A stretch of 32,000 nt of DNA from Spirillospora sp. CA-142024 (GTDB lineage Bacteria; Actinomycetota; Actinomycetes; Streptosporangiales; Streptosporangiaceae). Both the position numbers and the translations under genes were made by a program. The notes under the pieces were generated by a model. The model was given only the letters and a program-made list of their open reading frames with translations, was not told the origin of the DNA and ran no database searches. The first letter of the stretch is position 1, and the number at the start of each line of letters is the position of its first letter. The stretch is from contig NZ_CP192077.1 of assembly GCF_050942325.1 (NCBI RefSeq), forward strand, positions 8,662,121 through 8,694,120, read 5' to 3'. Of the stretch, positions 3,598 to 21,212 are shown in pieces.

Positions 3598-3607
3598 CCA
3601 AACTTCG

Positions 3608-4521: not shown

Positions 4522-4523
4522 GG

Positions 4524-4820: not shown

Positions 4821-6638
4821 CTACGAGGTGGCGCGCCAGCGGCCACGGGTGGTCTGGGTGGCGCGGCCAGTCTTCGAGAGATCTTGAAGGCGGTAGTAGA
4901 TCCATGAGCGGCCCATGCCAGTCCCGTTCATGAGGTGGACGATGGGTGTTCCCTCGTCGGGCGCTTGGCTCAGCATCTGCCAAAGGACGACCTCAGGGCC
5001 GTCCTGAGGCCCTGTTGCGTCGGCTCTCGGAGTCGTTGCGGTCCCCTTCCCCTGCGGGGGCGCGTCGCGTGGCTCTGGGTCGCTCAGAATGGTCGCCTCG
5101 TCGATTGCTCGTCGGGAGACCTCGTCGAGGGGCGGACGGGAGCCGGTGTGCTTTTCGGCGGTCGCCCTCACAGTCTCGTCCGTCAGCAGGTACGCGCGAG
5201 CGCGACGAGGCGTGTCATGCTCGGGTGCCGAGACAAGAAACTTGCCGGGTGCGTTGAGGGTCTGGGCGTGCCAGCCGGCGTTGAGCATTCCCTGCCCAAG
5301 GATGAGATCCACGTCCTTACGCTCGCGGACGCGGAAACCTAGGCGGACGTCCATTTGCGATCGGACGGCGCCCTTTCCCATTGCTTTCTGAGTTGGGCGC
5401 TGAGTGGCCGCGATGAGTTGCACCGCGACGGCACGTCCGCGACGAGCGATGGAATCGCTGTACGACGTCGCGTCTGCGGCTTCCTCTGCCAGTTCGGCGT
5501 ACTCGTCGATGATGATCACGAGTGCAGGGTTGTCGCGTGTCGGCTCCCATACTCGTTTCCCAGTCTCGGCGAGAGTGGCGGCACGCGCCTCCAGGACGAC
5601 CACAGCGTCACGGAGAAGGCGGCGTGCTTCTTCCGGAGTAGTCGCGAGTCGATCGATGCACTCTGCCCACGGCTGGAGTTCCATGCCGCGCTTGAGGTCG
5701 ATGGCCCAGATGACTACGTCTCCGCAGGCGGACAGGTTGCCCATGAGGACGTTGATGCCGCCGCTCTTGCCCGATCCCGCGATGCCTCCGATGAGGGCAT
5801 GCCGACGCAGGAGGAGGACACGTGCGGGTGCGGCATCCTCGAATGGGCCGAGGTCGATCGGTTCCGTGATTGTCGTGACGGATGGTCCAGGCCACGCAAT
5901 GGCGTTGGCGTGCGGGTCGATGTTGAGTACCCGCAACTCGAAGCGGTTCGCCCTGTCGTCACGGGTCGGGTAGACGCGGACGGCACCTCTGAACGTCCCG
6001 AGTGCGGATTCGAGCGCCGGAATCTTGCCGATCGCGTCTTGGATCGTCTGGCCGCGTGCCAGGCCGAAGCGGGCGCGCCATCCCCATACGTCCACCACGG
6101 CGGACATGACGCGGGAGCCTGCCAGCCCGACCGATTGGGAGATCTCGGGCCACGCGGCAAGCGTGCGCTCGACGCGGACTCGGGCGCGCCGGCGTCGGTG
6201 TACCCACCAGGGCACGGACAGGATGGGCGTACCGACGAGGATGATTTGCGGTAGCGGCCGGTAGGCCACGCCGAGTGCTGTTGCTGCGGCAAGCCATCCT
6301 CCGGCGCTCAGCGCGACGGTTGCCGCGTACAGACGCTCGATCCGGAGTGACAGGCCGATGCGGTCACCGACGAGGCCCAGAGCCGACGCGGACACGATGG
6401 CCGTGCCGAGGATGCCGATCCACCATCCGGGATGCGACAGGTGGAGGGTCAGCGATGCGGCGACGAGGACGAGGGCCAGTGCGATCGGCCCGATTTCGGA
6501 GCGGTAGCGCCAGAGTCCTCGGGCGATGATGACGGCTGCGAGATCGGGAACCGGTCCGTTGGAGTCGATGACGACCATGGGCTGTAGCCCGTTGCGGCGC
6601 ATGCGGCGGGCGTGGCGCTTCATCTGCTGGTTCTTCAT
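4821..6638 (-). CDS. FtsK/SpoIIIE-family DNA translocase (TraB/TraSA-like conjugative transfer protein)
   Basis: N-terminal hydrophobic helices. Walker A GGIAGSGKSGGINVLMGNL, Walker B ALVIIIDEYAEL, then ATQRPTQKAMG...RSQMDVRLGFRV. A C-terminal winged-helix-like tail is present. The start overlaps the upstream stop as ATGA. Confidence 0.9.
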   Translation of the reverse strand: MKNQQMKRHARRMRRNGLQPMVVIDSNGPVPDLAAVIIARGLWRYRSEIGPIALALVLVAASLTLHLSHPGWWIGILGTAIVSASALGLVGDRIGLSLRIERLYAATVALSAGGWLAAATALGVAYRPLPQIILVGTPILSVPWWVHRRRRARVRVERTLAAWPEISQSVGLAGSRVMSAVVDVWGWRARFGLARGQTIQDAIGKIPALESALGTFRGAVRVYPTRDDRANRFELRVLNIDPHANAIAWPGPSVTTITEPIDLGPFEDAAPARVLLLRRHALIGGIAGSGKSGGINVLMGNLSACGDVVIWAIDLKRGMELQPWAECIDRLATTPEEARRLLRDAVVVLEARAATLAETGKRVWEPTRDNPALVIIIDEYAELAEEAADATSYSDSIARRGRAVAVQLIAATQRPTQKAMGKGAVRSQMDVRLGFRVRERKDVDLILGQGMLNAGWHAQTLNAPGKFLVSAPEHDTPRRARAYLLTDETVRATAEKHTGSRPPLDEVSRRAIDEATILSDPEPRDAPPQGKGTATTPRADATGPQDGPEVVLWQMLSQAPDEGTPIVHLMNGTGMGRSWIYYRLQDLSKTGRATQTTRGRWRATS

Positions 6639-6970
6639 GCGCGCCCCTCAGTGTCGTATCCCTGGGCGTGTAGCTCGTCGCGCAGGTACCAGTGGGGGTC
6701 GCGTTCCCCGTCGCTGTGCGCGTTGAGGGTGGCGCGTGCGGCGGCTGCGAGGTTGGCGCGGTGTATGCGGTTGTCGCGCAATTCGGTGCTGAGACGCGCG
6801 ATCTCTGCGGCCAGTGCGGGGATGGTGTCGAGGGCGTTGTCGAGGTTCCTGCGGAGGATGGTGGGGAGCGATGCGTCGGGCCATGTGTTGGCGATGATGC
6901 GGCGTGCTGTGCGGCTGCGGTTGATGGCCTCCTGAAGGTCAATCCTCGGGTGGTACGGGGAGTTGGTCAC
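6635..6970 (-). CDS. Hypothetical transfer-operon protein (111 aa)
   Basis: The tracked ORF runs to 7099, but GAAGGAGGGG precedes an in-frame GTG at 6970 (VTNSPYHPRIDLQEAINR...). The stop overlaps the FtsK-like start (ATGA). Confidence 0.55.
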   Translation of the reverse strand: MTNSPYHPRIDLQEAINRSRTARRIIANTWPDASLPTILRRNLDNALDTIPALAAEIARLSTELRDNRIHRANLAAAARATLNAHSDGERDPHWYLRDELHAQGYDTEGRA

Positions 6971-7019
6971 TAGGCATCCCCTCCTTCGGTTGGGGGCGTT
7001 GAGACGTTTGGGAGGGTCG

Positions 7020-7214
7020 TCAGTGCTGGTCGGTGCTGAGCCACTCGACGATCGCGGCCACCAGGTGGCGGATTTCCGGCGCGGCGCTGGTGGCGGCAAG
7101 GAAGAACCCGAACAACAGGCAGATGACCGCGTGCCAGACGCGCAAGCCCATGTAGCGCCACGCGACGTACGCGACCGCGCCGAGGATGGCGACGAGCGGG
7201 ATCGAAACGTTCAT
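7020..7214 (-). CDS. Small 2-TM membrane protein (Spd-like spread protein candidate)
   Basis: 64 aa with two hydrophobic helices (IPLVAILGAVAYVAW, HAVICLLFGFFLAATSAA). GGGAGGTG lies upstream of the ATG. Confidence 0.6.
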   Translation of the reverse strand: MNVSIPLVAILGAVAYVAWRYMGLRVWHAVICLLFGFFLAATSAAPEIRHLVAAIVEWLSTDQH

Positions 7215-7266
7215 ACGTGCATCACCTCCCTTCCTTGCTCGCGAGCGGGGATCTCAGGTCACGCCG

Positions 7267-7989
7267 TTACGAGGGGTCGGTGTCTTCGGACTCGTCCGGG
7301 TCGTTGAGTTGCCGGCGTAGTTCGGTCGCCTTGGGGGTGCTGATCCTCAGCGACGTCCGGAGCGCGTCACGGGTGATGGGACGACCGTGCATCTGTCGGT
7401 ACTGGGCATCGGCGAACCGGGCCGCATCCATCAGTTCCTCGTCGGTACGGCGAGGCGGACGCCGTACCCGTCGCTTCGGATGAGGGGAGGAGGCGTCGTC
7501 CCTGCCGCTCTTCGGTTCGTCCTCAGCAAGCGGCGGCGCGTCGATCCGGCTGCGGAGGGCGTGAAGGTGTGCGGTGAGTCCGAGGACGGCAGCGGGTACG
7601 GCACCGACGAGGACGACGATCGGCCATGAGAGGTCGAGCAGTCCGGCCCCTATCGCGTGGTACGCGGCGTTGCCGGTGATGCTCATCGCGATCGCGCCGA
7701 GAGCGTTCGTCCGGGCGAATCGGCGCGCGGCGGCCGAACGGGTTGTGCTGGCCAGCCACACGCGCGCCGAGGTCATGGCGTGCGCGTCGATGGTGATCGG
7801 CAAGAGCCACGCCAGCCGTACGGGCCAGCCGGCAACGGTGGCCAGCCCGTACAGACCGGTGAAGCTGGCGACCGCAGCCGAGACGGCCGCGATCGTCATA
7901 CCGATCATCACCCACCAGTCCCGTACCGGATCGTCCTCGTCGGGGACGGATTCCGGTACGAGGGTCGGGTGCGCATCGGTCGCGGACAT
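7267..7989 (-). CDS. DUF2637-like integral membrane protein with a C-terminal HTH-like tail (AICE spread/transfer protein)
   Basis: Helices with WWVMIGMTIAAVSAAVASFTGLYGLA...LAWLLPITIDAHAMTSARVWL resemble DUF2637 proteins of actinomycete conjugative elements. The C-terminus reads RPITRDALRTSLRISTPKATELRRQL. Confidence 0.7.
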   Translation of the reverse strand: MSATDAHPTLVPESVPDEDDPVRDWWVMIGMTIAAVSAAVASFTGLYGLATVAGWPVRLAWLLPITIDAHAMTSARVWLASTTRSAAARRFARTNALGAIAMSITGNAAYHAIGAGLLDLSWPIVVLVGAVPAAVLGLTAHLHALRSRIDAPPLAEDEPKSGRDDASSPHPKRRVRRPPRRTDEELMDAARFADAQYRQMHGRPITRDALRTSLRISTPKATELRRQLNDPDESEDTDPS

Positions 7990-8001
7990 GGGACCGTCCT
8001 T

Positions 8002-8139
8002 TCAGATTCCGTCGTGGCGGGACTTGCGGCGACGCCAGCGGGAGCGGGACCGGCACTTGAGGCACCGCCGGTTGCCGATCTCGGTACGGGCACCGCAGGG
8101 GCAGGAACGTCCGGGGACGTTGGGGGTTCGCACATTCAC
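8002..8139 (-). CDS. Tiny Cys4 zinc-ribbon, Arg-rich protein
   Basis: Sequence: (V)NVRTPNVPGRSCPCGARTEIGNRRCLKCRSRSRWRRRKSRHDGI. The GTG start overlaps the upstream stop (GTGA). It is the only sensible part of the otherwise Arg/Pro-rich 252-aa tracked ORF 8002-8760. Confidence 0.4.
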   Translation of the reverse strand: MNVRTPNVPGRSCPCGARTEIGNRRCLKCRSRSRWRRRKSRHDGI

Positions 8140-8360
8140 CTCTTGAGGCCGGTGGTCTGACGGGTCGTCTGGGAGGTCTGGCATCGGACCGTGACGCCGA
8201 GGAACCGGCGCGTTGAGGCCGTCGTCCGGGAGTTGGCCGTGCCGGTGAGGCTCATGTGGCGCTCTTCGGTGTGGATGCCGACGAGCAGGAACAGGAAGAC
8301 GCCGAGAGCACCACCGGTCAGGAACACGGCGAGCAGAAGCATGAAGATCGCGGAGGTCAT
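8136..8360 (-). CDS. Small membrane protein (74 aa, one N-terminal TM helix)
   Basis: MTSAIFMLLLAVFLTGGALGVFLFLLVGI. GAGGAG lies 9 nt upstream of the ATG, directly after the stop of the 8364-8711 gene. Confidence 0.5.
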   Translation of the reverse strand: MTSAIFMLLLAVFLTGGALGVFLFLLVGIHTEERHMSLTGTANSRTTASTRRFLGVTVRCQTSQTTRQTTGLKR

Positions 8361-8363
8361 CGG

Positions 8364-8711
8364 TCACATCTCCTCGGGGGCGTCCGCGATGACGGCGCCG
8401 TCGTAGGTCATCAGGGCGTTGTGGCGGGCGTGTACGGCGTTGGGGATCGCGATCGCGCTGTAGGTCACGGGACCGAAGTCCCGCATGGCGCGGTAGTGGC
8501 GGCTGTACGGGTCCGGGGTGAAGACCTCCGCCCCGACGAGGGCCGCGATGCGGTGGATCTCGGTTTGCTGGGCCCGGTCGCTGCCCTGGGCGAAGACCAT
8601 GAGTTCCGTGCTGTGGGGCGCCGGCACCTCGGGATGCGCTTCGAGGAAGGCGGCAAGGGCGCGAAGACCGGCGATGAGTCGCGGTCGCTGGTTCATGTCC
8701 GCGTACGGCAT
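8364..8711 (-). CDS. Hypothetical protein, first gene of the transfer operon (115 aa)
   Basis: GAGAGGGG precedes the ATG at 8711 (MPYADMNQRPRLIAGLRALAAFLEAHPEVP...). The longer tracked ORF to 8834 would run through the operator-like region. Confidence 0.55.
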   Translation of the reverse strand: MPYADMNQRPRLIAGLRALAAFLEAHPEVPAPHSTELMVFAQGSDRAQQTEIHRIAALVGAEVFTPDPYSRHYRAMRDFGPVTYSAIAIPNAVHARHNALMTYDGAVIADAPEEM

Positions 8712-8764
8712 GTGGATCACCCCTCTCGTCCTGTCGCGCTCTTGGGAAGCGCGAGCACATTCAT

Positions 8765-8880
8765 ACTGTGCGCGCACAGTCGTGCGCGTCAAGACGTTAG
8801 CGCACACTTTCGCGTCAACAGCTTCGCGCGTCATGATGTGCGCGGACAGTTGGACGCATACAGGCGTGCGCGCTAGAGTG
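8765..8880. promoter_or_regulatory. Divergent promoter/operator region with a perfect 16-bp palindrome and iterated GTGCGCG heptamers
   Basis: actgtgcgcgcacagt (8765-8780) is a perfect palindrome. GTGCGCG recurs on the + strand at 8768, 8782, 8838 and 8866. The region lies between the minus-strand transfer operon and the plus-strand GntR gene. Confidence 0.45.
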
Positions 8881-8924
8881 ACGGGGGACCAAGCATCGAC
8901 GCAGGTGAGAGGAACCGATCGATC

Positions 8925-9746
8925 ATGGCTGGCACGACATCGCTACCAGCGGGCGCGCGTGCAGGGGGTTCCAAGCCGAATCTGTACGAGGTGATTCGGG
9001 ACCAACTGATAGGCGAGATCGAGTCGGGCCGATACCCGTCCGGCGCTCTGCTCCCGTCGGTCCGGGAGCTCACGGCGAAGATGGCCATCAGCACCACCAC
9101 GGCCCGTAAGGCGCTCGCTGAGGTGGTCGCGGCCGGCTACGCGCGCCCAGAGGGGACGCGTGGGCACGTCTCGACCGGTTCCCGTGCCCAGCACACCGCC
9201 GAGGACGCTCGCCAGCCGACCGAAGATGCGGCGGGGGACCGTCCCGCAGGCTTGATCATCCGGCCATCCGTGACCATCGCGTCAGACGGATTCGCAGGAT
9301 CCGAGACGGACCGGACAACGATCGACGTGCGCTCCGAACCGGCACCTGCCGAGGTCGCCATTGCGCTGGACCTCAACGACGCGACCTCGCCCGTAGTGGT
9401 CCGTAGGCGCCTCACGACTGACGAGCACGGGACACCGGTAGAGCTTCGAGCCAGCTACCTGGATCACGACTTCGCCCAGGGCACCGCGCTTGCCGAACCC
9501 GAACCCATTACTGGCTCATGGGTAGATGCCCTTGCCTCCGCAGACGGCAAGTCGTTGGGAGCGGCACAGCGCCACGTCTCAGCACGTCACCCAACCGACA
9601 CGGAATCGGCCATGCTCGGACTCCGCCCCACGGCCTGTGTGCTCGTCCGTACAGAGACCACGCAGGACCAGAGCGGACGCCCGATCGACCACACAGTCAC
9701 GGTATGGCCCGCCGAAAGCACACGCCTCAACCTGGGGAGCGAGTGA
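8925..9746 (+). CDS. GntR-family (HutC/UTRA-type) transcriptional regulator, Kor-like
   Basis: N-terminal winged HTH YEVIRDQLIGEIESGRYPSGALLPSVRELTAKMAISTTTARKALAEVVAAGYA. The C-terminal UTRA-like part ends ...GRPIDHTVTVWPAESTRL. Confidence 0.85.
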   Translation: MAGTTSLPAGARAGGSKPNLYEVIRDQLIGEIESGRYPSGALLPSVRELTAKMAISTTTARKALAEVVAAGYARPEGTRGHVSTGSRAQHTAEDARQPTEDAAGDRPAGLIIRPSVTIASDGFAGSETDRTTIDVRSEPAPAEVAIALDLNDATSPVVVRRRLTTDEHGTPVELRASYLDHDFAQGTALAEPEPITGSWVDALASADGKSLGAAQRHVSARHPTDTESAMLGLRPTACVLVRTETTQDQSGRPIDHTVTVWPAESTRLNLGSE

Positions 9747-9925
9747 TGACCGCAGGGGACACCAACGCTCAGCCATGTCCGCATTGCAGCTCAAGTGACA
9801 TCGAGGTCAAGACGAAAATCGACCTCGCGTTTGGTGAGGAAGTTCTATATCGAGCCTGCCGGAACTGTGGCAACGAGTACGACCACGGACTTCCGTCGGC
9901 TGATCAGAAGCGCGACGATTCCTAG
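9746..9925 (+). CDS. Small zinc-ribbon protein (59 aa)
   Basis: The ATG overlaps the GntR stop (TGATG at 9744-9748). MTAGDTNAQPCPHCSS...CRNCGN gives two CxxC pairs. Confidence 0.5.
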   Translation: MTAGDTNAQPCPHCSSSDIEVKTKIDLAFGEEVLYRACRNCGNEYDHGLPSADQKRDDS

Positions 9926-10681
9926 TCGATCGTCGTCCGGTATTGGAATTCGTACCGATCAGCACGGTAAATGATCTTCGCGACCTCGACCGGTGTGTCT
10001 CCCGCCCAGAACGTTTGCCATATCTGGATCACGGGGACACCCGCCGGAATGTCGAGCTGCGCCTCTTCGTGTGGTTCGGGCATGCGGACTTGCAGAACCT
10101 CTTCTTCCACATCTACCGAAGTAGCCGATCGCGTCGAATCGCGGGACAATTCCCTGTCCGCCGTACGGCCCTTCGTGGGGCGACTCGATCTCAGTGCCAG
10201 CCGTGATCGCGAGAGGCTCCCATGCCACGCTGAAAGAGACAGGGCTCCCGCCCATGCTGATTGCATACGAGGTCTCGGTAACAGGGTCGCCCTCGTCGAT
10301 GCCGAGACGTTCCGCAACGCCGGCGGGAGCCTCTGCGCGCTCCGTGGAATGCTCCATGTGGAGTTCCATACCCGCGCGGTCCGACTCCTGTCGATACGCG
10401 GGCTTGGCATGCGGACGCTGGAACCGGTCCCAATGGGTTCTGACGAGGGGCGGGCTCTTCGCAACAAAGGCGCCCTGACCTGCCAGGAAGTAGATTGCGC
10501 CAACGTTCCTCAGTGCGATGAGCGCTCGACGCGCCGCGCTCAACTCACAATCCCACCGCTGGGCCAGCTCCTGAGCGCTTGGCAACGGCGAATCAGGAGT
10601 CAAGTCTCCGCTCTTGATCTGCGACTGAAGGTCGTCGGCGATGGCCTGATACGGGGAGCTTTGCTGATCACGGTCGACCAT
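9922..10681 (-). pseudogene. Second GntR/HutC-family regulator, interrupted by a frameshift near 10111-10130
   Basis: The N-terminal HTH (YQAIADDLQSQIKSGDLTPDSPLPSAQELAQRWDCELSAARRALIALRNVGAIY) and part of the UTRA domain are in the frame of ORF 9959-10681. The conserved UTRA end (VDVEEEVLQVRMPEPHEEAQLDIPAGVPVIQIWQTFWAGDTPVEVAKIIYRADRYEF) is in the frame of ORF 9922-10503. Confidence 0.7.
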
Positions 10682-10764: not shown

Positions 10765-10977
10765 TCAGATCAAGTCGTGCTCACGATCCTTGACGCGACG
10801 CACGAACGCTCGCCATTCGGTCGCCGCGAAGATCAATATTGGTCCGTCCGGGTCCTTCGAGTCACGCACACCGACCGCAGGTGCCGCGCTCGCCACCTCA
10901 ACGCATGCTCCTCCGTGGTGGTCGCTACGGCTCGCCTTACGCCACCGGAGACCCGTGGGGTTCGGCAAGTTCATCAT
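10765..10977 (-). CDS. DUF397 domain protein (BldB-like)
   Basis: WRKASRSDHHGGACVEVA...VGVRDSKDPDGPILIF...EWRAFV is the canonical DUF397 pattern. The start overlaps the upstream XRE stop (ATGA). Confidence 0.85.
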   Translation of the reverse strand: MMNLPNPTGLRWRKASRSDHHGGACVEVASAAPAVGVRDSKDPDGPILIFAATEWRAFVRRVKDREHDLI

Positions 10978-11816
10978 CCGAGTTCCTCCATCAAACTTTC
11001 GATCAGGCGACGGGACTCATCAATTCGGAGCGCGTCACCTCGAAGCAAGTTGTACAACACCGCACACTCTGCAACGGATTTCTTCTCCTGGAGAAGCATC
11101 CCTTGCCCACCAGCTTCGATGTAGGCGACATCGGTCGAGTCCGCAAAACTGAGCATGATGAAGCTCCCACCCAACCCGGGGTAGTACCCGGCATCCTGCG
11201 GGACGACATCGATCCACACGTTGGGCAACTCGCTAATGGAGAGCAGATGCTGAAGTTGCTCACGTACCACCGTAGGGCCACCGATCACACGCCGCAAAGC
11301 GAACTCGTCGATCGTGAACCATGCTTGAGGTGCGTCCTCAGCAGTGAACAACTCTTGCCGCTTCAAACGGTCCTTCACGAGTTGATCCACCATATCCGGT
11401 CTCTGATTACGTCCAAGCACGGTTCGAATGTAGCTCTCCGTCTGCAACAGCCCATTGACCATGGCAACGTCGAACGCCCGAATGGTAGCCGCTTCCGCTT
11501 CCATTTCGAGGTACTGGTCGAACCCGGGAGGCCGGATCGTCCGGTGACGTGTGTCGATGATGCGCTTCCAAAGGCGCGAGAATAGACCGTTCGTCCTGAA
11601 AAAGGTGTCGAGGTCCTGGGCGAACTTCTCTGAAGGAATGTTCTTGCCGGCTTCGATCTGGCCGAGCCATTGCGGCGTGTATCCGAGCTTCTCGGCCAAG
11701 TCTTGCTTGCTCAGCTGCGCTTCCGAGCGCCACGCCGTGACCTCTGCCGCAAATGTCTGGATAGCCGGATCTTCGTACGCTTCACGCCGTGATCCCATTG
11801 CCGACTCCTCTACCAA
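10974..11816 (-). CDS. XRE-family HTH regulator with a DUF5753-like C-terminal domain (WhiJ-like)
   Basis: HTH LSKQDLAEKLGYTPQWLGQIEAGKNIPS, followed by a long C-terminal domain typical of actinobacterial WhiJ-type paralogues. The start may be Met7 (11798). Confidence 0.85.
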   Translation of the reverse strand: MVEESAMGSRREAYEDPAIQTFAAEVTAWRSEAQLSKQDLAEKLGYTPQWLGQIEAGKNIPSEKFAQDLDTFFRTNGLFSRLWKRIIDTRHRTIRPPGFDQYLEMEAEAATIRAFDVAMVNGLLQTESYIRTVLGRNQRPDMVDQLVKDRLKRQELFTAEDAPQAWFTIDEFALRRVIGGPTVVREQLQHLLSISELPNVWIDVVPQDAGYYPGLGGSFIMLSFADSTDVAYIEAGGQGMLLQEKKSVAECAVLYNLLRGDALRIDESRRLIESLMEELG

Positions 11817-12026
11817 ACCCCGGTGGGAGGTTTCGTGGTCCGGGGCGGAGGTTTACCGGACCCGTTTCGGGGTTCGTAGCCGAGAGTAACTCACGCTTGC
11901 GACTCTGGTCACGGCATTTCAACAGGAAACCGGAGGCGACAGTTCCCCATGGCGAACACCCGCCCACCGCCCGGTGATCATCACCGGTTCCATCCGACAT
12001 CCGGAGACACTCCAAAGGTCGTATCG

Positions 12027-12422
12027 ATGCACGCAACCCTTCTCGCCCCCGAAACCCCGCCCCTCGTCCTCGATCCCACCGTGAACGCGCCGGCCCTGGC
12101 GCGCCGCTTTCTCGCCGAACGCTTCCGCGAGTGGGGCATCGAGGACGACTCCGACGGCCGTCTGGTCGTCTCGGAGCTGGTCACGAACGCCCTTCTCCAC
12201 GGCGCCGGACAGATCGTCGTCCGCGTCTACCGAGACGAGAGCGACGGCATCCCCGTAATCGAGGTGTGGGACCAGGGCGACGGCGCGCCGGTAGTCCGTC
12301 CGGAAAGCGACACCCAGCTCAACGGCCGAGGACTCCTGACCGTCGAGGGCATCGCGCTCAAGTGGGGCACGCGACCGATCACCGAAGGAGGCAAGATCGT
12401 TTGGGCGCGCGTCGCTTCTTAG
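12027..12422 (+). CDS. ATP-binding protein of the anti-sigma-factor kinase (HATPase_c-like, AbaA orfD-like) type
   Basis: ARRFLAERFREWGIEDDSDGRLVVSELVTNALLHGAGQIVVRVY...IEVWDQGDG...GRGLLTVEGIALKWG. It is divergent from the XRE/DUF397 pair. The ATG at 12027 is chosen over the upstream 11949. Confidence 0.8.
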   Translation: MHATLLAPETPPLVLDPTVNAPALARRFLAERFREWGIEDDSDGRLVVSELVTNALLHGAGQIVVRVYRDESDGIPVIEVWDQGDGAPVVRPESDTQLNGRGLLTVEGIALKWGTRPITEGGKIVWARVAS

Positions 12423-13172: not shown

Positions 13173-14132
13173 CTATCCCAACACCGACGCTTCGAGGGCC
13201 ATGCTGAACTCCGGATCGATCTGAGTCGTGAGATCGACCCCCACAGACTTGTTGGCCCAACTCTCAGCGTTCTTGACGTGGAACTCCGCACCCTGCCGAG
13301 AGAACTTCTCCCAGTCCTTCGGCTGCGCGTCCACCTCGGCCTGAAGGCGTCGCAGCACCTCCCGCCCAGGACCGTCGAGCGCGCTGAGGTCGAAGGGACG
13401 ACCTTGCTCCATGGCCCGAACGGCCGGTTGGTGCCCCATGCACGTCAGCAGGTCATCCCCCACCTGCGAGCGTAGGAACGCCTCGTCGTCGCTGGTCTGG
13501 ACCTTGTTGCCCACGACCGCGATCTTCACCCCGAAGTCCCGCGCGTGGTCGGTGTACTGCTGGTAGACGGCTACGCCCTTCCTCGTCGGCTCGACGACGA
13601 GGAACATCACGTCGAACCGCGTGAACAGCCCAGAGGCGAACGTGTCCGCCCCCGCCGTCATGTCCACGACGACGTACTCTCCGGGACCGTCAACGAGGTG
13701 GTTGAGGTACATCTCAACCGCTCCCGTCTTCCCGTGATAGCAGGACACCCCAAGGTCCTTGTCGTCGAACTGGCCGGCCGCCATGAAGGTCACGCCACCG
13801 AACCGACGAGACATGGCATGGATCGGGTCGTCACCCCCGATCCGCAGGAGCTTCGAGCCGCGCCCTGGTGGCGTCGTCTTCACCATTTGAGCCGCGGACG
13901 CGATACGAGGGTTATCGCCCCTGAGGTACTCCTTGATGACGTCGAGGTGCGCTCCCAGCGCCGGCACGCTGGCGACCTCCTCATCACTGAGCCCCAAGGC
14001 CGCGCCGAGGTGCTGATTGATGTCCGCGTCGATCGAGACAACCGGCACCCCCTCCGCATCCAGATGACGGATGAACAGCGACGACGTAGTGGTCTTCCCG
14101 CTACCGCCCTTACCCACGAACGCAACCTTCAC
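13173..14132 (-). CDS. MinD/ParA-superfamily P-loop ATPase, CooC-like
   Basis: VKVAFVGKGGSGKTTTSSLFIRHLDAEGVPVVSIDADINQHL is a deviant Walker A of the Mrp/MinD/CooC type; YVVVDMTAGADTF is a Walker B-like segment. GGGAGGG precedes the GTG at 14132. The tracked ORF extends to 14261. Confidence 0.8.
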   Translation of the reverse strand: MKVAFVGKGGSGKTTTSSLFIRHLDAEGVPVVSIDADINQHLGAALGLSDEEVASVPALGAHLDVIKEYLRGDNPRIASAAQMVKTTPPGRGSKLLRIGGDDPIHAMSRRFGGVTFMAAGQFDDKDLGVSCYHGKTGAVEMYLNHLVDGPGEYVVVDMTAGADTFASGLFTRFDVMFLVVEPTRKGVAVYQQYTDHARDFGVKIAVVGNKVQTSDDEAFLRSQVGDDLLTCMGHQPAVRAMEQGRPFDLSALDGPGREVLRRLQAEVDAQPKDWEKFSRQGAEFHVKNAESWANKSVGVDLTTQIDPEFSMALEASVLG

Positions 14133-14462
14133 GAACCCTCCCAAAGAGACGATGAAAACCGTTGTCGTTGCTCCAAGTGTCCTCGGAAGCAAAGCACGTC
14201 GCAAGCGGTTCATCACTGTCCGTGTCGACAGAGCCTCCCACCGCAGGCAATTTGTAAGCATTTGCGCAAAAGCGATAGGCGAGAAGACGCTTTAGCTGAC
14301 GAATAGCCCTCAAAGTGATGGAGATTCGAGCATCAAACCAGAAAAGGGGTTTTTGCTCAGCCATGCAGATGGAAACTTCTACTACCCGAGGCGATTCACT
14401 GACCGCCACAGACGAGCGGCCGATCTGATCGACAGAGGGCAAATTCAGTACTAGATCAAAAT

Positions 14463-14900
14463 TCAGTCTAGATGATCTCTTAGACGGGCTGCAATTGCAT
14501 CAGTATCAGCGATCGACGACTCCTCTACATGCTCCCACTCCGTCCCACCATCGGGCAACGTCCCGGCAACATGGAAATGAACGTGAGGAATCGTTTGATG
14601 TGCAGGGATACCATTGTTCTGCCAAACAGCTACGCCTCGGACTTTATAGGCATTGCTGACTGCTTTGGCGGCCGAGATAATAGCAGGCATGATAGCCGTA
14701 GCTTCATCTTTTGTCAGATCGATTAGGGTAGGCCTATGTCTTATTGGCATTACCAGTAGATGTCCTACACCGCGCTGCTCTCGCGTCACCAAAGTAGCTA
14801 CGGCCTCAGTTCTTGTGAGAATGGTAAACGGTCGAACCCCTGCCAAGTATTCACAAAATGGGCAAGGCCATATCTTGGGGACGTCCAGCGATGCATTCAT
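14463..14900 (-). CDS. HIT (histidine triad) family nucleotide hydrolase/transferase
   Basis: CPFCEYLAG near the N-terminus, GHLLVMPIRH, and the histidine triad QTIPHVHFHVAG. The ATG overlaps the stop of the upstream Macro-like gene (ATGA at 14897-14900). AT-rich composition. Confidence 0.85.
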   Translation of the reverse strand: MNASLDVPKIWPCPFCEYLAGVRPFTILTRTEAVATLVTREQRGVGHLLVMPIRHRPTLIDLTKDEATAIMPAIISAAKAVSNAYKVRGVAVWQNNGIPAHQTIPHVHFHVAGTLPDGGTEWEHVEESSIADTDAIAARLRDHLD

Positions 14901-15763
14901 GACGGCTTAAGCGACCTTAAGAAGGCTTGCAATTCCAGCATATCGAGATTGTCGACATCCGAACTCCTGACCACAATATTTAGCCGATCGGCGACCTTCT
15001 CTTTGCGGGAGGCAAAAATATATGACAAAGCAATGAAGCGAATAGAGTCCTGAGCAGGGAAATATTGAGAGATGCGAGCTTGCCCGCCCCCGATTACTGC
15101 GACCGAGATAGGGTCCCCATTACCCTTCGCCCGAACCTCATCCCACAGATTATTCAGGCTACGCCAGACACGGTCGACGCTCCCGCGTACCTCATTTCGT
15201 TTATTCATCTCCGTGTAAGCTACACAGAAGTACAGGCGGCGAATCGAGGGCGAAATCGCAACGACTGTCCCGACAGGATAGGCCACCTGCTTGCCTGGCT
15301 TAGCATCTTGAGGCGTGAACCGATGGCTTTCGTTGTAAGGGGCGAGCCCCTGCTCTAAAGCCCTATCAAGCGCACGAATATCATTGCGGTAGACTCGCGT
15401 CAGAAGCTGCGCCTGCACACCTTTTTCATCGATGATATGTGGGATCTCGGTGTCAAAGGTGTCCGTCATACCGATGACTATGTTTCCTTCCTGTTCAAAT
15501 AGATCTCCTTCGACAATATGAATTTCGGTGTTGGGAGACTTATACTGTTGCCGCACAGGTCTAGGCCAAGATCTATAAAGACCATATGTAGGTGATATCA
15601 GGAGGACTGTGCCTACAAAAAACACTCCCATTGGAGGAAGCGCTTTTGGGAACAGTGCAGAAACTATGCCCGCAACCACGGCAAAGAAGCCGACGCAGGA
15701 CAAAGTCTGAGTCGAAAACCTTGCCCAGAAGCGCTTTTTTGTCAGGTCCCTTACAATAGCCAC
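14897..15763 (-). CDS. 2-TM membrane protein with a C-terminal Macro-like domain (type II Thoeris ThsA-like effector candidate)
   Basis: Two N-terminal hydrophobic helices (LSCVGFFAVVAGIVSALF, MGVFFVGTVLLISPTYGLY). Then IHIVEGDLFEQEGNIVIGMTDTFDTEIPHIIDEKGVQAQL...VAVIGGGQARI, which resembles the ThsA-type Macro domain. The GTG start sits directly after the TAATAA stop of the TIR gene. Confidence 0.6.
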   Translation of the reverse strand: MAIVRDLTKKRFWARFSTQTLSCVGFFAVVAGIVSALFPKALPPMGVFFVGTVLLISPTYGLYRSWPRPVRQQYKSPNTEIHIVEGDLFEQEGNIVIGMTDTFDTEIPHIIDEKGVQAQLLTRVYRNDIRALDRALEQGLAPYNESHRFTPQDAKPGKQVAYPVGTVVAISPSIRRLYFCVAYTEMNKRNEVRGSVDRVWRSLNNLWDEVRAKGNGDPISVAVIGGGQARISQYFPAQDSIRFIALSYIFASRKEKVADRLNIVVRSSDVDNLDMLELQAFLRSLKPS

Positions 15764-15766
15764 TTA

Positions 15767-16276
15767 TTAGAGACCAATCTTTCGATATGTTTCAGCCTTA
15801 TAGTAGTGAGCCCCCTTCTTATTGGATACAGCATACGCAGGAGCGTAATTGTCTAGAGCGTATCGAATTATCCTAGGCTGGAACGAAACTGATAGCGTGT
15901 AGTAGTCGTCATCAATAAACCGTTGAGGAATGAAGTTTTCATCAATGAAACGATCCCCATCCAGGTTGGCAATAATTACTGGCAGGTCGAGCTTCGAAAT
16001 AACCTCGACCTCATAATAGAGAAACGACTTTCCGTCTCCCGCCTTCTTCTTCCCCTTCGCACTGCCCAGTATGATGGCTTGTTTCGTGTTAGCCAGCCGC
16101 AGACGAAGGCTTCGCCGGATGGTCTCTGGCAGACTAGTATCCCTTGCCTGTGCAAGATCGTGTGCGTCTAGGAAGTTGAAATCGATGTGCTCGTTATCGC
16201 GCCAGGCTGTCATGAGTCTGTAGTAGTTAATGTCTTCACTGGCGAAGGCTACGTAGGTCTTATTGCGATAACTCAT
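15767..16276 (-). CDS. TIR-like domain protein (DUF1863/ThsB-like)
   Basis: KTYVAFASEDINYYRLMTAWRDNEHIDFNFLDAHDL...TKQAIILGSAKG...YYEVEVISKLDLPVIIANL fits the ThsB/MTH538 TIR-like pattern: beta1 with an acidic loop, a second strand, then a conserved Glu. GGAGGA lies upstream of the ATG. Confidence 0.7.
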   Translation of the reverse strand: MSYRNKTYVAFASEDINYYRLMTAWRDNEHIDFNFLDAHDLAQARDTSLPETIRRSLRLRLANTKQAIILGSAKGKKKAGDGKSFLYYEVEVISKLDLPVIIANLDGDRFIDENFIPQRFIDDDYYTLSVSFQPRIIRYALDNYAPAYAVSNKKGAHYYKAETYRKIGL

Positions 16277-16679
16277 ATCGTCCTCCAGTACTTAAAGACG
16301 CGATGTGCGAAAGTAGTCGCATCGGGATGCCAGCCCCTACATCAGGGTCTGCCCGTTCTCAAGTGTAGGTACGCGTTGCCGCTACGGGCGGGTCACAACG
16401 CCGTGTGACCATATGTGGCCCATCGACCGCCTACTTGCACTGGCAAGCCGCATTGAAGCTAAGCGCGGGTGCCAGCGGGTACTCCTTCGAGGCCGGCGCC
16501 CACCACCGACAATAGGTGTTGATCCACAATCCAACGGACTTCGTTCTTGACTCCGGCTCAATCGCCCAGGATATGGCCACGGCTGTCGGGGCGAAGGCCA
16601 CAAACGCTCTTCTAGCGCTGCGTGAACTAGCTCTTTTAGTTCTTCGGCGGAGGCTCCCGCCCGATATCAGAAGGAACGC

Positions 16680-17636
16680 CTAATCTCTTAGCCAGCGTTC
16701 AATGGCTACAGGAACAGTGGCTTCAATATCGGTGAGATCGAATGTCTCCCGCAGGGTGCCCAATATATCTGCCCGGAGATTACTAAATGCGTTATCGGCT
16801 AGTAGGAGAGCTGGCTTGTTGAGCGCTCGCATGAATCCGTATTCAAGAGCAACGTTTGGATTAAATTCGTTAGCCGCCCTGTCTTCCAGGATGGCAACTC
16901 CACGGCTACAGCAGAGCATGTATACGCAGACATTATTCCAGAGATTTCGATCTGGCATGTAAACCTTATCGTCCGCCCTGACCGGATTATAACCGTGTTC
17001 GCGCAAAGCTTTTCGAATTTCTTGATCTAGCGTGACAAGGAACTTGCTCCCAGCATCAAAGCGTGTCATTAGGAAGACGTTGCGCTCGTATCTCGGGTGA
17101 TCCTTAAAGAAACGTTCGCACTCTTTCGCAAGGAAGTCGTAGCCTGGAGGGAGAGAGAAGTTTCCCATTGTATCGAACCCTCTAACGTAATGCGATTGCC
17201 ATCTAATGGCATAATCGACCTGCAAGCGCAATATAGCTTGCACCTGAGAGGGCAGCAATCCCCAATCCTCTTCGATATTTCGACCTTCAACCTCAGGAAG
17301 GAAGAAGAGGCAGTCCTGCTGCCTCAATTCAAAGTCTCGATACAATGAATCGAGAAGATTGAGGATGGCGTCTGATTCGAGAGAGACCTCGTCAATCGGT
17401 TGAACGTTTTCTGGCAACGATAGCAAGTTGACCCCATTGACCGACGAAATTACGTCAGCCGATCCCTTGTCGCGCAATACGAACAGCCGCACGGAGTCAG
17501 AGGCGCGATAAACTTTGCCGTCGAAACTCTGGATGGGCCAGCGATACAGATCCGCCCTGCGGTCTTCTTCGACTATTCGACGCATCCAATCCCTGAATCC
17601 AAAACACCAATCTATGTTGAAGTGCTCACGAACCAT
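16680..17636 (-). CDS. Hypothetical protein with a C-terminal nucleoside 2-deoxyribosyltransferase/TIR-like Rossmannoid domain
   Basis: The C-terminal 130 aa read VFLMTRFDAGS...LDQEIRKALREHGYNPVRADD...NLWNNVCVYMLCCSRGVAILED...FNPNVALEYGFMRALNKPALLLAD. This reproduces the strand-helix-strand layout and the x-N-V-x-x-E-x-G motif of NDT/TIR-like clades. The N-terminal 185 aa were not recognised. Confidence 0.55.
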   Translation of the reverse strand: MVREHFNIDWCFGFRDWMRRIVEEDRRADLYRWPIQSFDGKVYRASDSVRLFVLRDKGSADVISSVNGVNLLSLPENVQPIDEVSLESDAILNLLDSLYRDFELRQQDCLFFLPEVEGRNIEEDWGLLPSQVQAILRLQVDYAIRWQSHYVRGFDTMGNFSLPPGYDFLAKECERFFKDHPRYERNVFLMTRFDAGSKFLVTLDQEIRKALREHGYNPVRADDKVYMPDRNLWNNVCVYMLCCSRGVAILEDRAANEFNPNVALEYGFMRALNKPALLLADNAFSNLRADILGTLRETFDLTDIEATVPVAIERWLRD

Positions 17637-17717
17637 TATGGTCTCCCGCTCGTTACTGGGGTGGTCCCTGCCACGACATCACTCATGTTAACCAGTAAAC
17701 CCTCGAAGAAACATTAG

Positions 17718-20700
17718 TCAGCAACTGAGCCCTCTCACATATGTAATGGCCTCAACAAGCGCGTCAGGAGAGGCGATGCCAACTGCTGTGAGGAGGTCCG
17801 TAGCCGTCGCGTATACCATTGCCGATGAGATCAGCTGCCGAGCGCGGGCCGCATCAGTTGTTCTGGCGATGGCTTCGAGGGCATATGCAGCCGCCGGAGG
17901 GTTGACAATGGATCCAACGATGGCTTCAGCGCGCTCAACTTGTCCAGCTTCCACCAAGGCGTCGACCACGCTGCTCAACGCGGAAGCCTGACTCTGGGGG
18001 CTGGTGATAGTACGGGCGACGGCTTCAGCCCGTACTAGACTCCCAATTCTCGCCAGCGCGTCGACCACGCTGCTCAACGCATAGGCCCGATTCTGGGGGT
18101 CAGTGATAGCGCGGGCAACATTCTCGGCTTCGGTAGCCAACTCAGCAGCCTGCTCAACCTGACCCGCCTTCACCAACGCGTGGACCACAGTGCTCAGCGC
18201 GTTTGCCTGGTTCTGGAGGTCGGTGATGGTCCGGGCGACAGCTTCAGCCCGTCCAAGACTCCCCATGCTCACCAGCGCCCAAACAACGTTACTCAGCGCG
18301 GACCCCTTACTTCGGGGGTCGGCGATAGCGCGGGCAAGGGTCTCGGCTTCGTTGGCTAACTCGGCAGCCTGCTCAACCTCACCTACCTCCGCCAGGGTGC
18401 CGGCCACTCTGCTCATCGCATACACCTGGTTCAGCAGGTCGGTTATGGCGCGGGCAACGGTCTCGGCTTCGTTGGCCAACTCAGCAGCCCGCTCACCCCC
18501 ACCTACCTCCACCAGCGCTTCGACCACACTGCTCAGCGCGTTTGCCTGGTTCTGGGGATCGGTGATGGTCCGGGCAACGGCTTCAGCCCGTTCTAGGCTC
18601 CCCATGCTCGCCACTGTGTCAACCACTCTGCTCAGCGCGTAGGCCCGGTTCTGGGGGTCGGTGATGGTGCGGGCAACGTTTTCCGCTTCGATAGCCAACT
18701 CAGCGGCTGGCTCGGCCCGACCCGCCTTCACCAACGCGTCGACCAGATTGCTCAGCGCATAGGCCTGACTATGGGGGTCGGTGATGGTGCGGGCAACGTT
18801 CTCCGCTTCGGTAGCCAACTCAGCAGCCCGCTCAACCCCACCCACGTCCACCAACGCGCGGGCTACCCTGCTCAGCGCGTAAGCCTGGTTCTGGGGGTCG
18901 GTGATGGTCCGGGCGACAGCTTCAGCCCGTACCAGGCTCCCCATGCTCACGAGCGCGTCGACCACACTGCTCCACGCATAAGCCTGGCCCAAAAGATCGG
19001 GAACGGAATTGGCGACGTTCTCGGCTTCCGTGGCCAACTCAGCAGCCCGCTCAACCCCACCCACGTCCACCAACGCATCGACCACACTGCTCAGCGCGTC
19101 TGCCTGGTTCTGGGGGTCGGTGATGGTCCGGGCGACGGCTTCAGCCCGTTCTAGACTCCCCAAGCTCACCAGCGCCCAAACAATGTGCTTCAGCGCGAAC
19201 GCTTGGTTTCGGGGGTCGGTGATGATCCGGGCAAGGGTCTCGGCTTCGGTAGCCAACTCAGCAGCCCGCTCAACCCCACCCACGTCCACCAACGCGTCGA
19301 CCACACTGCTCAGCGCATACACCTGGTTTCGAGGGTCGGTGATAGTCCGGGCGACGTTCTCCGCTTCGGTAGCCAACTCAGCAGCCCGCTCAACCCCACC
19401 CGCCTTCACCAACGCGCGGGCTATCCTGCTCAGCGCGTAAACCCGACTCTGAGAGTCGGTGATAGTGCGGGCAAGGGTCTCGGCTTCGGTGGCCAACTCA
19501 GCGGCTGGCTCGGTCCGCCCCACCTTCACCAACGCATCGGCCACGCTGCTCAGCGCGTCTGCCTGGTTTCGAGGGTCGGTGATGGTGCGGGCGACGGCTT
19601 CAGCCCGTTCTAGACTCCCGATGGTCACCAGCGCGTCGACCACGATGCTCAGCGCATAGGCCTGACTCAAGAGATTTGGAACGGAATTGGCGATGTTCTC
19701 CGCTTCCGTCGCCAACTCAGCAGCCCGCTCAACCCCACCCGCGTCCACCAACGCGTCGACCACTTTGCCCAGCGCCACTACCTGGTCCGGAGGATCGCTG
19801 AGAGAATGGGCCAATGCGAGGGCACGATTAAGATTTCCTAGACGTGCCCAGGCAGCCGGAAGTCCTACGGGGATGTTGCTGTTGCGTTGGATAAGGCGTT
19901 GCCGGGTCAAAGCAACGTGGAGAGCCGAGACTAAGTCAGGGCTAGGTTGGTCACGAATGTGCTCCAGAACGGTGATAATGTCAGCTATTGCCGCACCGTC
20001 TCCTTTGCTTACATCCAGCATGCGGTCTAAGCGTTCTTGATCTGCAACCAGTGCCCGCATGCGCGACAAGTCACCGATTTTGTGAAGCTGTTGAAGGTAT
20101 CCGCGGAGCAAATATTCCGGTGTACCTTTGGGCCAGCCAGAACCTCGATAGCGCTCTGCCCAGGCATGGATCCGCTCCCACCATGCTTGGGTCTCCACTT
20201 GGCGGAGGGATCGCAAAACACTCTGCACGAGTTCCTCATGAGCCAGCACGAGGAGTTCATCGCCATTGTCGGCCCACCGTGGGGCACGGCAAGTAAATGA
20301 TCGGCCCGTGACGGCATGAAGGATCCGTTCCACCTCCCCCACCGGCTCACCTGTCAACTCCGCCAAGTCCCGGCCTGATAGGCCACCTCCCGCCGTTACC
20401 AGCAGGCCAAGCAGGTCACGCCCTACCCCGCCGCCATCCAAGAGGTCTGACAACTCGCGCTCGGCTGCGGCTCGGAACGCCACCGCCCAATCAGAAGGCC
20501 GCAATGCACGGACGATTCCCTGCTTCTGGAGCGGATGCCAGTCCGGCACGTCCCCCGGTACAGGCGGGTTCGGACGGCCTGACACCACGACGCGCACCCC
20601 TTCAGGGGGCCGACCGGGCAACAAAGCGGCGATGCTGTGAGCATCCCTGCTACGTCGCACGCCCCGGTCCTCGTCCAATCCATCGACCACGAGCACCAGC

Positions 20701-21212
20701 CGGTATCCGTCCGCCGCGCACTTGCCCGCAGCCTCCTCCAGCAGTTGCAAGAACCACTGCTGGCGATTCGACTCAGTCAACACATCCGGCAGCGCTTGAC
20801 CTGTTAGTTCCGCCAATTGCTCCAACACCGCTGCCAAAAATGCGGACCGGTCGCTCTGGCCCGCAAGCCGCGCAGTGATAAAAAAGGACACCACACGGAC
20901 CCTTGCCGGCGGATTCTGCACAAAAGACGCCATCAACGCCGACTTGCCAGCCCATGCCGGAGCTTGCCACCACACATAATCCGGACCTTCCGGGCATGTG
21001 CAGAACTCTGCCAACTCTTCAAGCTCCGCCCGGCGATCCTTCAGCTCACCGGAGAAAATCTGCTCAACCTGCCGCGCATACGCCGAGCGGAAAGGACCTG
21101 TCGCTCGCATTCCGTAATAATTGTTCTGAATGCCAGTATTAACATTCGCGCCATCACCACCCGACGCGCGCCCCGACCGGCGAACCCAACCCCACCAAGG
21201 TCGACTCGTCAA
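17718..21212 (-). CDS. NACHT-type STAND NTPase (bacterial NLR-like) with a C-terminal array of about 18 alpha-helical repeats
   Basis: Walker A WWQAPAWAGKSALMASF. NACHT-like Walker B RLVLVVDGLDED. A helical/winged-helix region is followed by repeats of the form ERAAELATEAENVARTITDPxNQxYALSxVVDALVxxGxx. The start overlaps the stop of the upstream small gene. Confidence 0.85.
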   Translation of the reverse strand: MTSRPWWGWVRRSGRASGGDGANVNTGIQNNYYGMRATGPFRSAYARQVEQIFSGELKDRRAELEELAEFCTCPEGPDYVWWQAPAWAGKSALMASFVQNPPARVRVVSFFITARLAGQSDRSAFLAAVLEQLAELTGQALPDVLTESNRQQWFLQLLEEAAGKCAADGYRLVLVVDGLDEDRGVRRSRDAHSIAALLPGRPPEGVRVVVSGRPNPPVPGDVPDWHPLQKQGIVRALRPSDWAVAFRAAAERELSDLLDGGGVGRDLLGLLVTAGGGLSGRDLAELTGEPVGEVERILHAVTGRSFTCRAPRWADNGDELLVLAHEELVQSVLRSLRQVETQAWWERIHAWAERYRGSGWPKGTPEYLLRGYLQQLHKIGDLSRMRALVADQERLDRMLDVSKGDGAAIADIITVLEHIRDQPSPDLVSALHVALTRQRLIQRNSNIPVGLPAAWARLGNLNRALALAHSLSDPPDQVVALGKVVDALVDAGGVERAAELATEAENIANSVPNLLSQAYALSIVVDALVTIGSLERAEAVARTITDPRNQADALSSVADALVKVGRTEPAAELATEAETLARTITDSQSRVYALSRIARALVKAGGVERAAELATEAENVARTITDPRNQVYALSSVVDALVDVGGVERAAELATEAETLARIITDPRNQAFALKHIVWALVSLGSLERAEAVARTITDPQNQADALSSVVDALVDVGGVERAAELATEAENVANSVPDLLGQAYAWSSVVDALVSMGSLVRAEAVARTITDPQNQAYALSRVARALVDVGGVERAAELATEAENVARTITDPHSQAYALSNLVDALVKAGRAEPAAELAIEAENVARTITDPQNRAYALSRVVDTVASMGSLERAEAVARTITDPQNQANALSSVVEALVEVGGGERAAELANEAETVARAITDLLNQVYAMSRVAGTLAEVGEVEQAAELANEAETLARAIADPRSKGSALSNVVWALVSMGSLGRAEAVARTITDLQNQANALSTVVHALVKAGQVEQAAELATEAENVARAITDPQNRAYALSSVVDALARIGSLVRAEAVARTITSPQSQASALSSVVDALVEAGQVERAEAIVGSIVNPPAAAYALEAIARTTDAARARQLISSAMVYATATDLLTAVGIASPDALVEAITYVRGLSC
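17940..19835 (-). repeat. In-frame tandem coding repeats (alternating 99-nt and 120-nt units) inside the STAND gene
   Basis: The 44-nt string gccaactcagcagcccgctcaaccccacccacgtccaccaacgc occurs identically at 18814-18857, 19033-19076 and 19252-19295. Many further near-identical units are visible. They translate to 33- and 40-aa repeats. Confidence 0.85.

Follow-up and report, generated by a model that had tools for sequence, protein, structure and literature searches.

The stretch of DNA analysed here (the window, 32,000 nucleotides of Spirillospora sp. CA-142024, contig NZ_CP192077.1, positions 8,662,121 to 8,694,120) contains, at 14463-16276, three adjacent minus-strand genes for a TIR protein, a two-transmembrane (2-TM) Macro effector and a histidine-triad (HIT) enzyme. 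These genes almost certainly constitute a Thoeris type II cassette as PADLOC defines it (ThsB-ThsA-ThsC). Their features, all on the minus strand and in the direction of transcription, are as follows.

16282-16286: ribosome-binding site GGAGG, read from the sequence, 5 nt upstream of the thsB ATG
15767-16276: thsB, 169 aa, ATG start, ThsB-type TIR protein
15761-15769: thsB/thsA junction TAA TAA GTG (thsB stop, a second TAA, then the thsA GTG; gap 3 nt)
14897-15763: thsA (ThsA2 in PADLOC), 288 aa, GTG start, 2-TM plus ThsA-Macro effector
15584-15712: two predicted TM segments of ThsA, residues ~18-38 and ~44-60 (Kyte-Doolittle)
14966-15523: Macro domain of ThsA, residues 81-266 (Pfam envelope)
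14897-14900: thsA/HIT junction ATGA (the thsA stop TGA overlaps the HIT ATG; 4-nt overlap)
14463-14900: thsC (in the PADLOC sense), 145 aa, ATG start, HIT-superfamily enzyme of the Hint-like branch
14568-14585: histidine-triad motif HVHFHV, HIT residues 106-111, read from the sequence

The tight packing of the three genes and both junctions, which an earlier reading of the DNA (the original prediction) had pointed out, lie exactly where that reading placed them. By inspection of the sequence, a GGAGG site precedes thsB only, and neither thsA nor the HIT gene, an arrangement that fits coupled translation of the second and third genes. The three genes have a GC content of 47-51%, compared with 62-63% in the flanking genes and 65-75% in the rest of the window; consequently, their earlier description as AT-rich is correct relative to the genome (an island of ~50% GC in a genome of ~65-70%) but not in absolute terms. 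In a promoter/terminator scan of 14000-17800, the number of matches did not exceed that in shuffled sequence, and the gap upstream of thsB had none.

The TIR, 2-TM-Macro and HIT assignments made in the original prediction are borne out by Pfam matches above the cut-offs and by PADLOC models that are matched over their full length. The thsB product scores 34.3 bits against Pfam ThsB_TIR (cut-off 21.2; E=3e-8) and fits the PADLOC ThsB2 model (PDLC00440) with E=2.1e-83, residues 1-169 of 169 aligning with model positions 1-169 of 169. It also gives a full-length match to the structure of EcThsB2 (PDB 8v6t, E=6e-67), with 60% identity in alignment A3. Residues Y8, E89, Y159 and Y164 are invariant in this alignment, and the last two are the equivalents of residues in the C-terminal tail of EcThsB2. 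Shi et al. 2024 (PMC11204291) describe the EcThsB2 subfamily as the main TIR class and as one found with TM-Macro effectors only; it has an active-site Tyr beside the catalytic Glu, like the nucleoside 2-deoxyribosyltransferases (NDTs), it has a C-terminal tail that contains Y159 and Y164, and it is grouped with BaThsB, the producer of histidine-ADP-ribose (His-ADPR). Judged by these matches, the TIR protein of the window falls into the class of EcThsB2 and BaThsB, which is subfamily 9 in Shi et al. 2024, and by their position Y8 and E89 would be the NDT-type Tyr/Glu pair of its active site.

The thsA product matches Pfam ThsA_Macro with 175 bits (E=1.7e-51) over residues 81-266, PADLOC ThsA2 (PDLC00439) with E=7.9e-115 (residues 1-288 on model positions 1-282 of 282), and the ThsA Macro domains of PDB entries 8v6q (E=2e-10) and 8r66 (E=8e-7). 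Its N-terminal hydrophobic segments reach Kyte-Doolittle 19-residue means of up to 2.17 (the first) and about 1.5-1.6 (the second). The third protein scores 53 bits against Pfam HIT PF01230 (cut-off 21.5; E=6e-14) and matches the ThsC2 (ThsC, HIT family) model of PADLOC (PDLC00441) with E=4.4e-67, residues 2-144 on model positions 3-145 of 148; the signature HVHFHV noted by the original prediction is indeed present at residues 106-111. In NCBIfam, no specific family was found for any of the proteins, and the HIT protein falls below the cut-offs of every named HIT equivalog.

A three-gene TIR/Macro/HIT Thoeris system is already known, and the window holds a further instance of it, in Spirillospora. 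Payne et al. 2021 (Nucleic Acids Research 49:10868; PMC8565338) reported that 167 Thoeris systems (2.4%) have an additional gene for a HIT-domain protein, introduced the names ThsC for this gene and Thoeris type II for the arrangement, and suggested formation or degradation of the second messenger as the function of the HIT protein, which would act as an off-switch like the ring nucleases. The contention of the original prediction that HIT enzymes are not a described Thoeris component therefore does not stand, given this report and the PADLOC-DB model PDLC00441; nor does the implied novelty of a three-component variant, since the same arrangement was named in 2021, and the main functional ideas offered in that prediction are covered by the proposal of Payne et al. 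Membership is assigned here from matches to the hidden Markov models of PADLOC-DB v2 together with gene adjacency: the three proteins fit PDLC00439, PDLC00440 and PDLC00441 end to end, the genes neighbour one another on a single strand, as in the co-localisation rule for type II, and nothing structural differs from the PADLOC type. As a result, annotation tools built on PADLOC-DB should call this cassette automatically, and its value as a discovery claim is low. (The 2021 description was computational only, and the signal was then assumed to be v-cADPR, a variant of cyclic ADP-ribose.) It should be noted that the nomenclature is not uniform. In the usage of the Sorek laboratory, "type II Thoeris" denotes any TM-Macro system, whereas in PADLOC it denotes ThsA, ThsB and HIT (ThsC) together; moreover, a preprint of December 2025 reuses "ThsC" for the TM-Macro effector itself. 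Because of these clashes, the earlier description of the HIT component can escape readers. The HIT component is mentioned in neither of the two experimental papers on TM-Macro Thoeris.

The recurrence of HIT genes beside TM-Macro/TIR pairs, which the original prediction had proposed to survey, is extensive, with 46 genome loci and 46 metagenome loci. In a survey anchored on the HIT protein, one genome per species was scanned and 80 loci were returned. Relatives of thsB and thsA lie beside the HIT gene in 46 of these, five are cut by the end of a contig, and in 29 the HIT gene is alone; thus, both partners are present in 46 of the 51 Thoeris-linked loci, and the other five end at a contig edge. 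The genes usually run thsB-thsA-HIT; in four loci (L005, L006, L019, L020) thsB is flipped to the far side, and the thsA-HIT pair stays together. Among the 41 colinear loci, the spacing between the thsA stop and the HIT start is -4 in 30, -1 in nine, +1 in one and +3 in one, and that between thsB and thsA is -4 in 25 and between -11 and +5 in 39. The hosts are mostly Actinomycetota, with a few metagenome-assembled genomes labelled Pseudomonas, Burkholderiales, Methylotenera, Ideonella or Hyphomicrobiales; occurrence under the labels Pseudomonas, Burkholderiales and Methylotenera points to transfer of the cassette as a unit. A blastn search of E. coli genomes with the operon gave no match, because the similarity is at the protein level only.

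A second survey was anchored on the TIR protein, and so was blind to HIT. This metagenome scan returned 80 loci, with TIR proteins 57-76% identical to that of the window, which fall into the following groups.

46 loci: ThsA of the window type (38-75% identity to the window) with enough downstream sequence; HIT in 46/46
12 loci: ThsA of the window type, contig ends too early to judge HIT
13 loci: ThsA of the E. coli/Bacillus type (21-24% identity to the window); HIT in 0/13
9 loci: no ThsA found (mostly short contigs); HIT in 0/9

The median identity of the TIR protein to that of the window is 63% in the HIT-positive group and 60% in the group with E. coli/Bacillus-type (Ec/Ba-type) ThsA. Since the presence of HIT splits by effector type and the TIR proteins are similarly close in both groups, it is the effector clade, not the TIR, that HIT tracks. 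(HIT is likewise absent from three plasmid loci whose ThsA relatives show 29-33% identity.) A statement of this tracking was not found in the literature examined. Taken together, the layout of the operon and the surveys argue that the three genes are one real, strongly conserved and, as read from their junctions, translationally coupled functional unit.

The solved structures nearest to the HIT protein are Hint-type HITs (3ksv at 6e-12, 3l7x, 1y23 and 6iq1; 6e-12 to 3e-9), and the matches to Fhit (2e-6) and to diadenosine tetraphosphate (Ap4A) phosphorylase (3e-4) are weaker. By this sequence-based measure the protein is closer to the Hint type than to the Fhit, GalT, aprataxin or DcpS branches. 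Like other Hint-branch enzymes (the B. subtilis Hit protein 1y23, the adenosine 5'-monophosphoramidase 6iq1 and the uncharacterised 3ksv), it has the HxHxHxx triad, an upstream His, a CxxC and NNG...Q; unlike these, to which its identity is ~30-35%, it has its own conserved C-terminal extension, GTLPxGGTEW, and belongs to a family part of which is locked to a Thoeris effector. Residues C13, C16, H47, H55, H106, H108 and H110 are essentially invariant among 115 relatives, and these include the Cys and His residues that would be expected for a zinc site.

At E <= 1e-5, a search of a protein collection places ~900 members in the HIT family. In phage genomes a close relative was not found; there was a single match, at 32% identity. 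The HITs of the 29 stand-alone loci (L007, L009, L012, L016, L017 and L021 among them) are 55-62% identical to the window HIT and are found in Acidimicrobiales, Actinopolymorpha and other Actinomycetota. Where gene calls exist, their neighbours are metabolic genes, such as those for acyl-CoA dehydrogenase, thiolase, MerR and Nudix proteins (including L084-L087). Clustering of the neighbours, which relied on crude calling of open reading frames (ORFs) in these high-GC loci, revealed no family common to more than three loci except HIT itself and its antisense shadow ORFs. In neighbour-joining trees, rooted weakly (at the midpoint or with two Hint fragments as outgroup), the stand-alone HITs form one clade of 22 and a few small groups nested among the Thoeris-linked HITs. 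A single alignment column in the 115 sequences separates the two sets: I104 in the linked HITs versus V in those that stand alone.

Insight into what the effector might sense comes from its relatives. The product of BaThsB is His-ADPR, a conjugate that links C1'' of ADP-ribose (ADPR) to the side chain of histidine; the Macro domain of BaThsA contacts this molecule through D100, N133, S194, R240 and Y277; and the Ec and Pc Macro domains bind ADPR, bind imidazole-ADPR ~30-fold better, and oligomerise upon binding. The account of type II biology on which the original prediction was built, in which the TIR makes His-ADPR and the Macro domain of the TM effector binds it, agrees with this literature. 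In the window ThsA, the equivalents of the ligand contacts are D87, Q117, Q119, T184, R230 and R266. Of 87 HIT-linked ThsA sequences, 79 keep D87, the contact to the adenine N6, and 79 have R or K at R230, which corresponds to the histidine-carboxylate contact R240 of BaThsA. In the same low-identity alignment, S194 of BaThsA is replaced conservatively by T184, N133 by Q117 (a replacement seen in 77 of the 87), and Y277 falls at a variable position that is R266 in the window ThsA. Since both ends of His-ADPR apparently still are read, the effector is inferred to sense an intact His-ADPR-like molecule, and this makes a degrading role for the HIT protein likelier than a maturing one.

A possible mechanism can be assembled from these observations, with the signal chemistry and the effector mechanism drawn from the literature on relatives and every step of the HIT protein inferred. 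Upon phage infection, the TIR protein would carry out a base exchange on NAD+ that yields either His-ADPR or an imidazole-ADPR conjugate very like it; the Macro domain of the 2-TM effector would bind this ligand, oligomerise and damage the membrane, so that the infection is aborted. The HIT protein, which would be made in a fixed ratio with the effector by way of the stop/start overlap, would use its histidine nucleophile to attack the AMP α-phosphate of the signal, and probably of free ADPR too. This cleavage of the pyrophosphate would give AMP and (histidinyl-)ribose-5-phosphate. In doing so, it would keep this effector clade silent in uninfected cells, set the threshold for activation and reset the system. 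The chemistry has precedents, as HIT enzymes take AMP off AMP-X, pyrophosphate-linked substrates included (Fhit acts on diadenosine triphosphate, Ap3A, and aprataxin on DNA with a 5'-phosphate-linked AMP). Furthermore, the HIT gene is lost from no locus and is translationally coupled to thsA, which fits a brake on a toxic effector, a component that could not safely be lost. That the HIT protein is a signal or ADPR hydrolase acting as such a brake is put forward tentatively, at somewhat less than an even balance; the joint reading, a PADLOC-type-II cassette whose HIT protein is a signal- or ADPR-hydrolysing brake, we regard as evenly poised.

Several points weigh against this hydrolytic brake. 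Hint-branch enzymes prefer P-N (phosphoramidate) or acyl-adenylate bonds; pyrophosphates such as ADPR are typical substrates for the Fhit, aprataxin and GalT branches, and the window HIT resembles these less. A brake would benefit any TM-Macro Thoeris, yet the Ec/Ba-type systems manage without one. The fact that HITs of ~60% identity stand alone among metabolic genes, together with the one column that separates them from the linked HITs, suggests that there is no obvious specialisation for a Thoeris signal. The residues of the ThsA pocket were mapped by HMMER alignments to BaThsA and EcThsA at a pairwise identity of ~22-25%, and the pocket differences themselves (N133 to Q117, Y277 to R266) may mean that the ligand is not exactly His-ADPR. 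In addition, the conservation counts were made on tblastn segments, and some of the metagenome contigs counted may be duplicates or close relatives of each other. Finally, a literature search found no biochemical, genetic or phage-protection data for any ThsC/HIT Thoeris.

The same conservation pattern could also arise if the HIT protein matures the signal, turning the TIR product (His-ADPR or a relative) by hydrolysis or nucleotidyl transfer into the true ligand of ThsA2. That HIT follows the effector clade exactly (46/46 versus 0/13), with equally similar TIR proteins, is the pattern that a need of ThsA2 for a HIT-dependent ligand would predict; the Macro domain of ThsA2 shares only 21-24% identity with the Ec/Ba type and has the changes Q117 for N133 and R266 for Y277; retention of HIT at every locus fits an essential step; and "formation" of the messenger is also among the possibilities raised by Payne et al. 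(PMC8565338). However, the contacts to adenine (D87) and to the histidine carboxylate (R230) are conserved, and pyrophosphate cleavage would part precisely those two ends of the molecule. The HIT protein is also nearly indistinguishable from the stand-alone HITs found in metabolic contexts, with no sign of a new specificity, and from general knowledge Hint-type HITs are hydrolases, not synthases. Maturation in this broad sense seems unlikely, though worth keeping in view; its strict form, a two-enzyme messenger pathway in which HIT is the obligatory step that converts His-ADPR into a different molecule read only by the divergent ThsA2 Macro domain, falls at the lower end of that estimate. The resemblance to stand-alone HITs has another possible meaning, namely that the HIT protein is a parallel effector or metabolic modulator that acts independently of the TIR signal, for instance by hydrolysing Ap3A or Ap4A, aminoacyl-adenylates or other adenylylated species. 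All of its catalytic residues are intact, and as close relatives act alone in ordinary contexts, its substrate could be independent of Thoeris. We consider this improbable, given that the protein would be a small, constitutive Hint-like hydrolase that has neither a sensor domain nor an evident infection switch, and that both its exact co-occurrence with a single ThsA clade and the overlap of its start codon with the thsA stop speak for a role linked to the effector.

A role against phage counter-defence, in which HIT would destroy a decoy or inhibitor nucleotide or reverse an adenylylation of ThsA or ThsB, has some attraction, as the known anti-Thoeris measures of phages hit the level of the signal (a Tad2-family protein, for example, sequesters His-ADPR) and, from general knowledge, HIT enzymes such as aprataxin can take AMP off modified macromolecules. 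Direct evidence for it is nil, however; accessory genes of this kind are usually patchy, whereas HIT is present in 46/46 loci, and a hydrolase would be of no use against the known inhibitors, which are sponges, so that this role is very unlikely. Least probable of all, and barely credible, is that the HIT gene is a housekeeping-type passenger with no role in defence. The HITs of ~60% identity that stand alone among metabolic genes, and the one column by which they differ from the linked HITs, are what a passenger would lead one to expect. Against this, HIT is kept in all 46 TIR-anchored loci that have a window-type ThsA and enough sequence; the 4-nt stop/start overlap occurs in 30 of 41 loci, and the spacing lies between -4 and +3 nt in all 41; HIT stays beside thsA even where thsB has been flipped (L005, L006, L019, L020); and the cassette is spread across phyla.

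Like the two-gene TM-Macro Thoeris systems (BaThs of B. amyloliquefaciens Y2 and EcThs of E. coli; 10.1101/2024.01.03.573942, PMC11204291), the cassette has a TIR of the same subfamily with conserved tail tyrosines, and an effector that follows the same plan of two TM segments and a ThsA-type Macro domain, with the adenine and histidine-carboxylate contacts conserved. Unlike these systems, it has a third, coupled HIT gene in place of a two-component architecture, and its effector belongs to a separate clade (21-24% identical) in which Q117 and R266 stand for N133 and Y277 of BaThsA. The gene order also differs: in Ec/Ba-type loci, thsA is upstream of thsB or on the other strand, whereas the order of the window type is B-A-HIT. 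As in the analogy drawn by Payne et al. to the ring nucleases of type III CRISPR-Cas, a small putative hydrolase lies in a nucleotide-signalling defence operon and is proposed to limit or reset the effector; the HIT fold and chemistry are nevertheless unrelated to those of ring nucleases, and its activity on the signal is hypothesised. The presence of a clade-specific HIT that is coupled to the effector and yet resembles stand-alone HITs sharpens the question of what its role is. Should HIT indeed hydrolyse His-ADPR or ADPR, Thoeris would have a host-encoded enzyme that clears the signal, and this enzyme could serve as a reagent for manipulating such signals.

The genes around the cassette include the backbone of an integrative/conjugative element of the actinomycete type (1827-10681) and other candidate defence genes.

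1827-3479: large serine recombinase
4821-6638: TraB-like FtsK/SpoIIIE protein
7267-7989: DUF2637 protein
8925-9746 and 9959-10681: two GntR/UTRA regulators
10974-11816, minus strand: HTH_31/DUF5753 regulator, divergent from the HATPase_c_2 gene
11949-12422, plus strand: small HATPase_c_2 protein, resembling an anti-sigma-factor kinase
16680-17636, minus strand: ORF318, 318 aa, 400 nt upstream of thsB in the low-GC island, 49% GC
17718-21212, minus strand: 1164-aa STAND NTPase with a long TPR-like repeat array (PADLOC STAND_TPR 5e-118; Pfam NPHP3_N)

These element hallmarks and the genes that neighbour the Thoeris genes make the cluster look like mobile defence cargo, and it may be low-GC cargo of the integrative element. 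No tRNA and no flanking direct repeats that would delimit the low-GC island were found. The pair formed by the HTH_31/DUF5753 and HATPase_c_2 genes sits between the element backbone and the defence genes, a gene for a ParA-like ATPase lies near the Thoeris genes, and a second low-GC patch, without a long ORF, is present at ~3000-4500.

ORF318 belongs to a family of proteins of ~320 aa that has no Pfam domain and 270 matches, in Actinomycetota, Bacteroidota, Clostridia and Chloroflexota. Its AlphaFold2 model (pLDDT 88.5) gives the C-terminal half a nucleoside 2-deoxyribosyltransferase/DNPH1/TIR-like fold. As a fourth Thoeris component ORF318 was rejected: no Thoeris genes lie near its full-length relatives (in Cyclobacterium, Micromonospora, Spirillospora, Amycolatopsis and Streptomyces), and even a partial relative occurs in only two of ~92 Thoeris-HIT loci (L008 and L135). 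In Amycolatopsis (L089), an ORF318 relative does have a HIT gene next to it, but one outside the ThsC family. The surroundings of the full-length relatives are mobile elements or defence islands that lack Thoeris, and ORF318 may be an uncharacterised single-gene defence candidate. In the two exceptional loci, Pseudonocardia kongjuensis (L008, 7097-7561, minus strand) and a metagenome contig (L135, 3463-3753, minus strand), relatives of the C-terminal half of ORF318, at 38-44% identity, lie just downstream of HIT on the opposite strand; this recurrence may be due to chance, to cargo that such islands share, or to an additional TIR-like sensor.

The STAND NTPase is probably another defence gene of the same island. 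The PADLOC STAND_TPR model that it matches carries a description linking it to cas1-less type I-E systems of Streptomyces. At the DNA level, its gene contains ~10 copies of a repeat unit, spaced alternately by 120 and 219 nt, at roughly 17930-19800.

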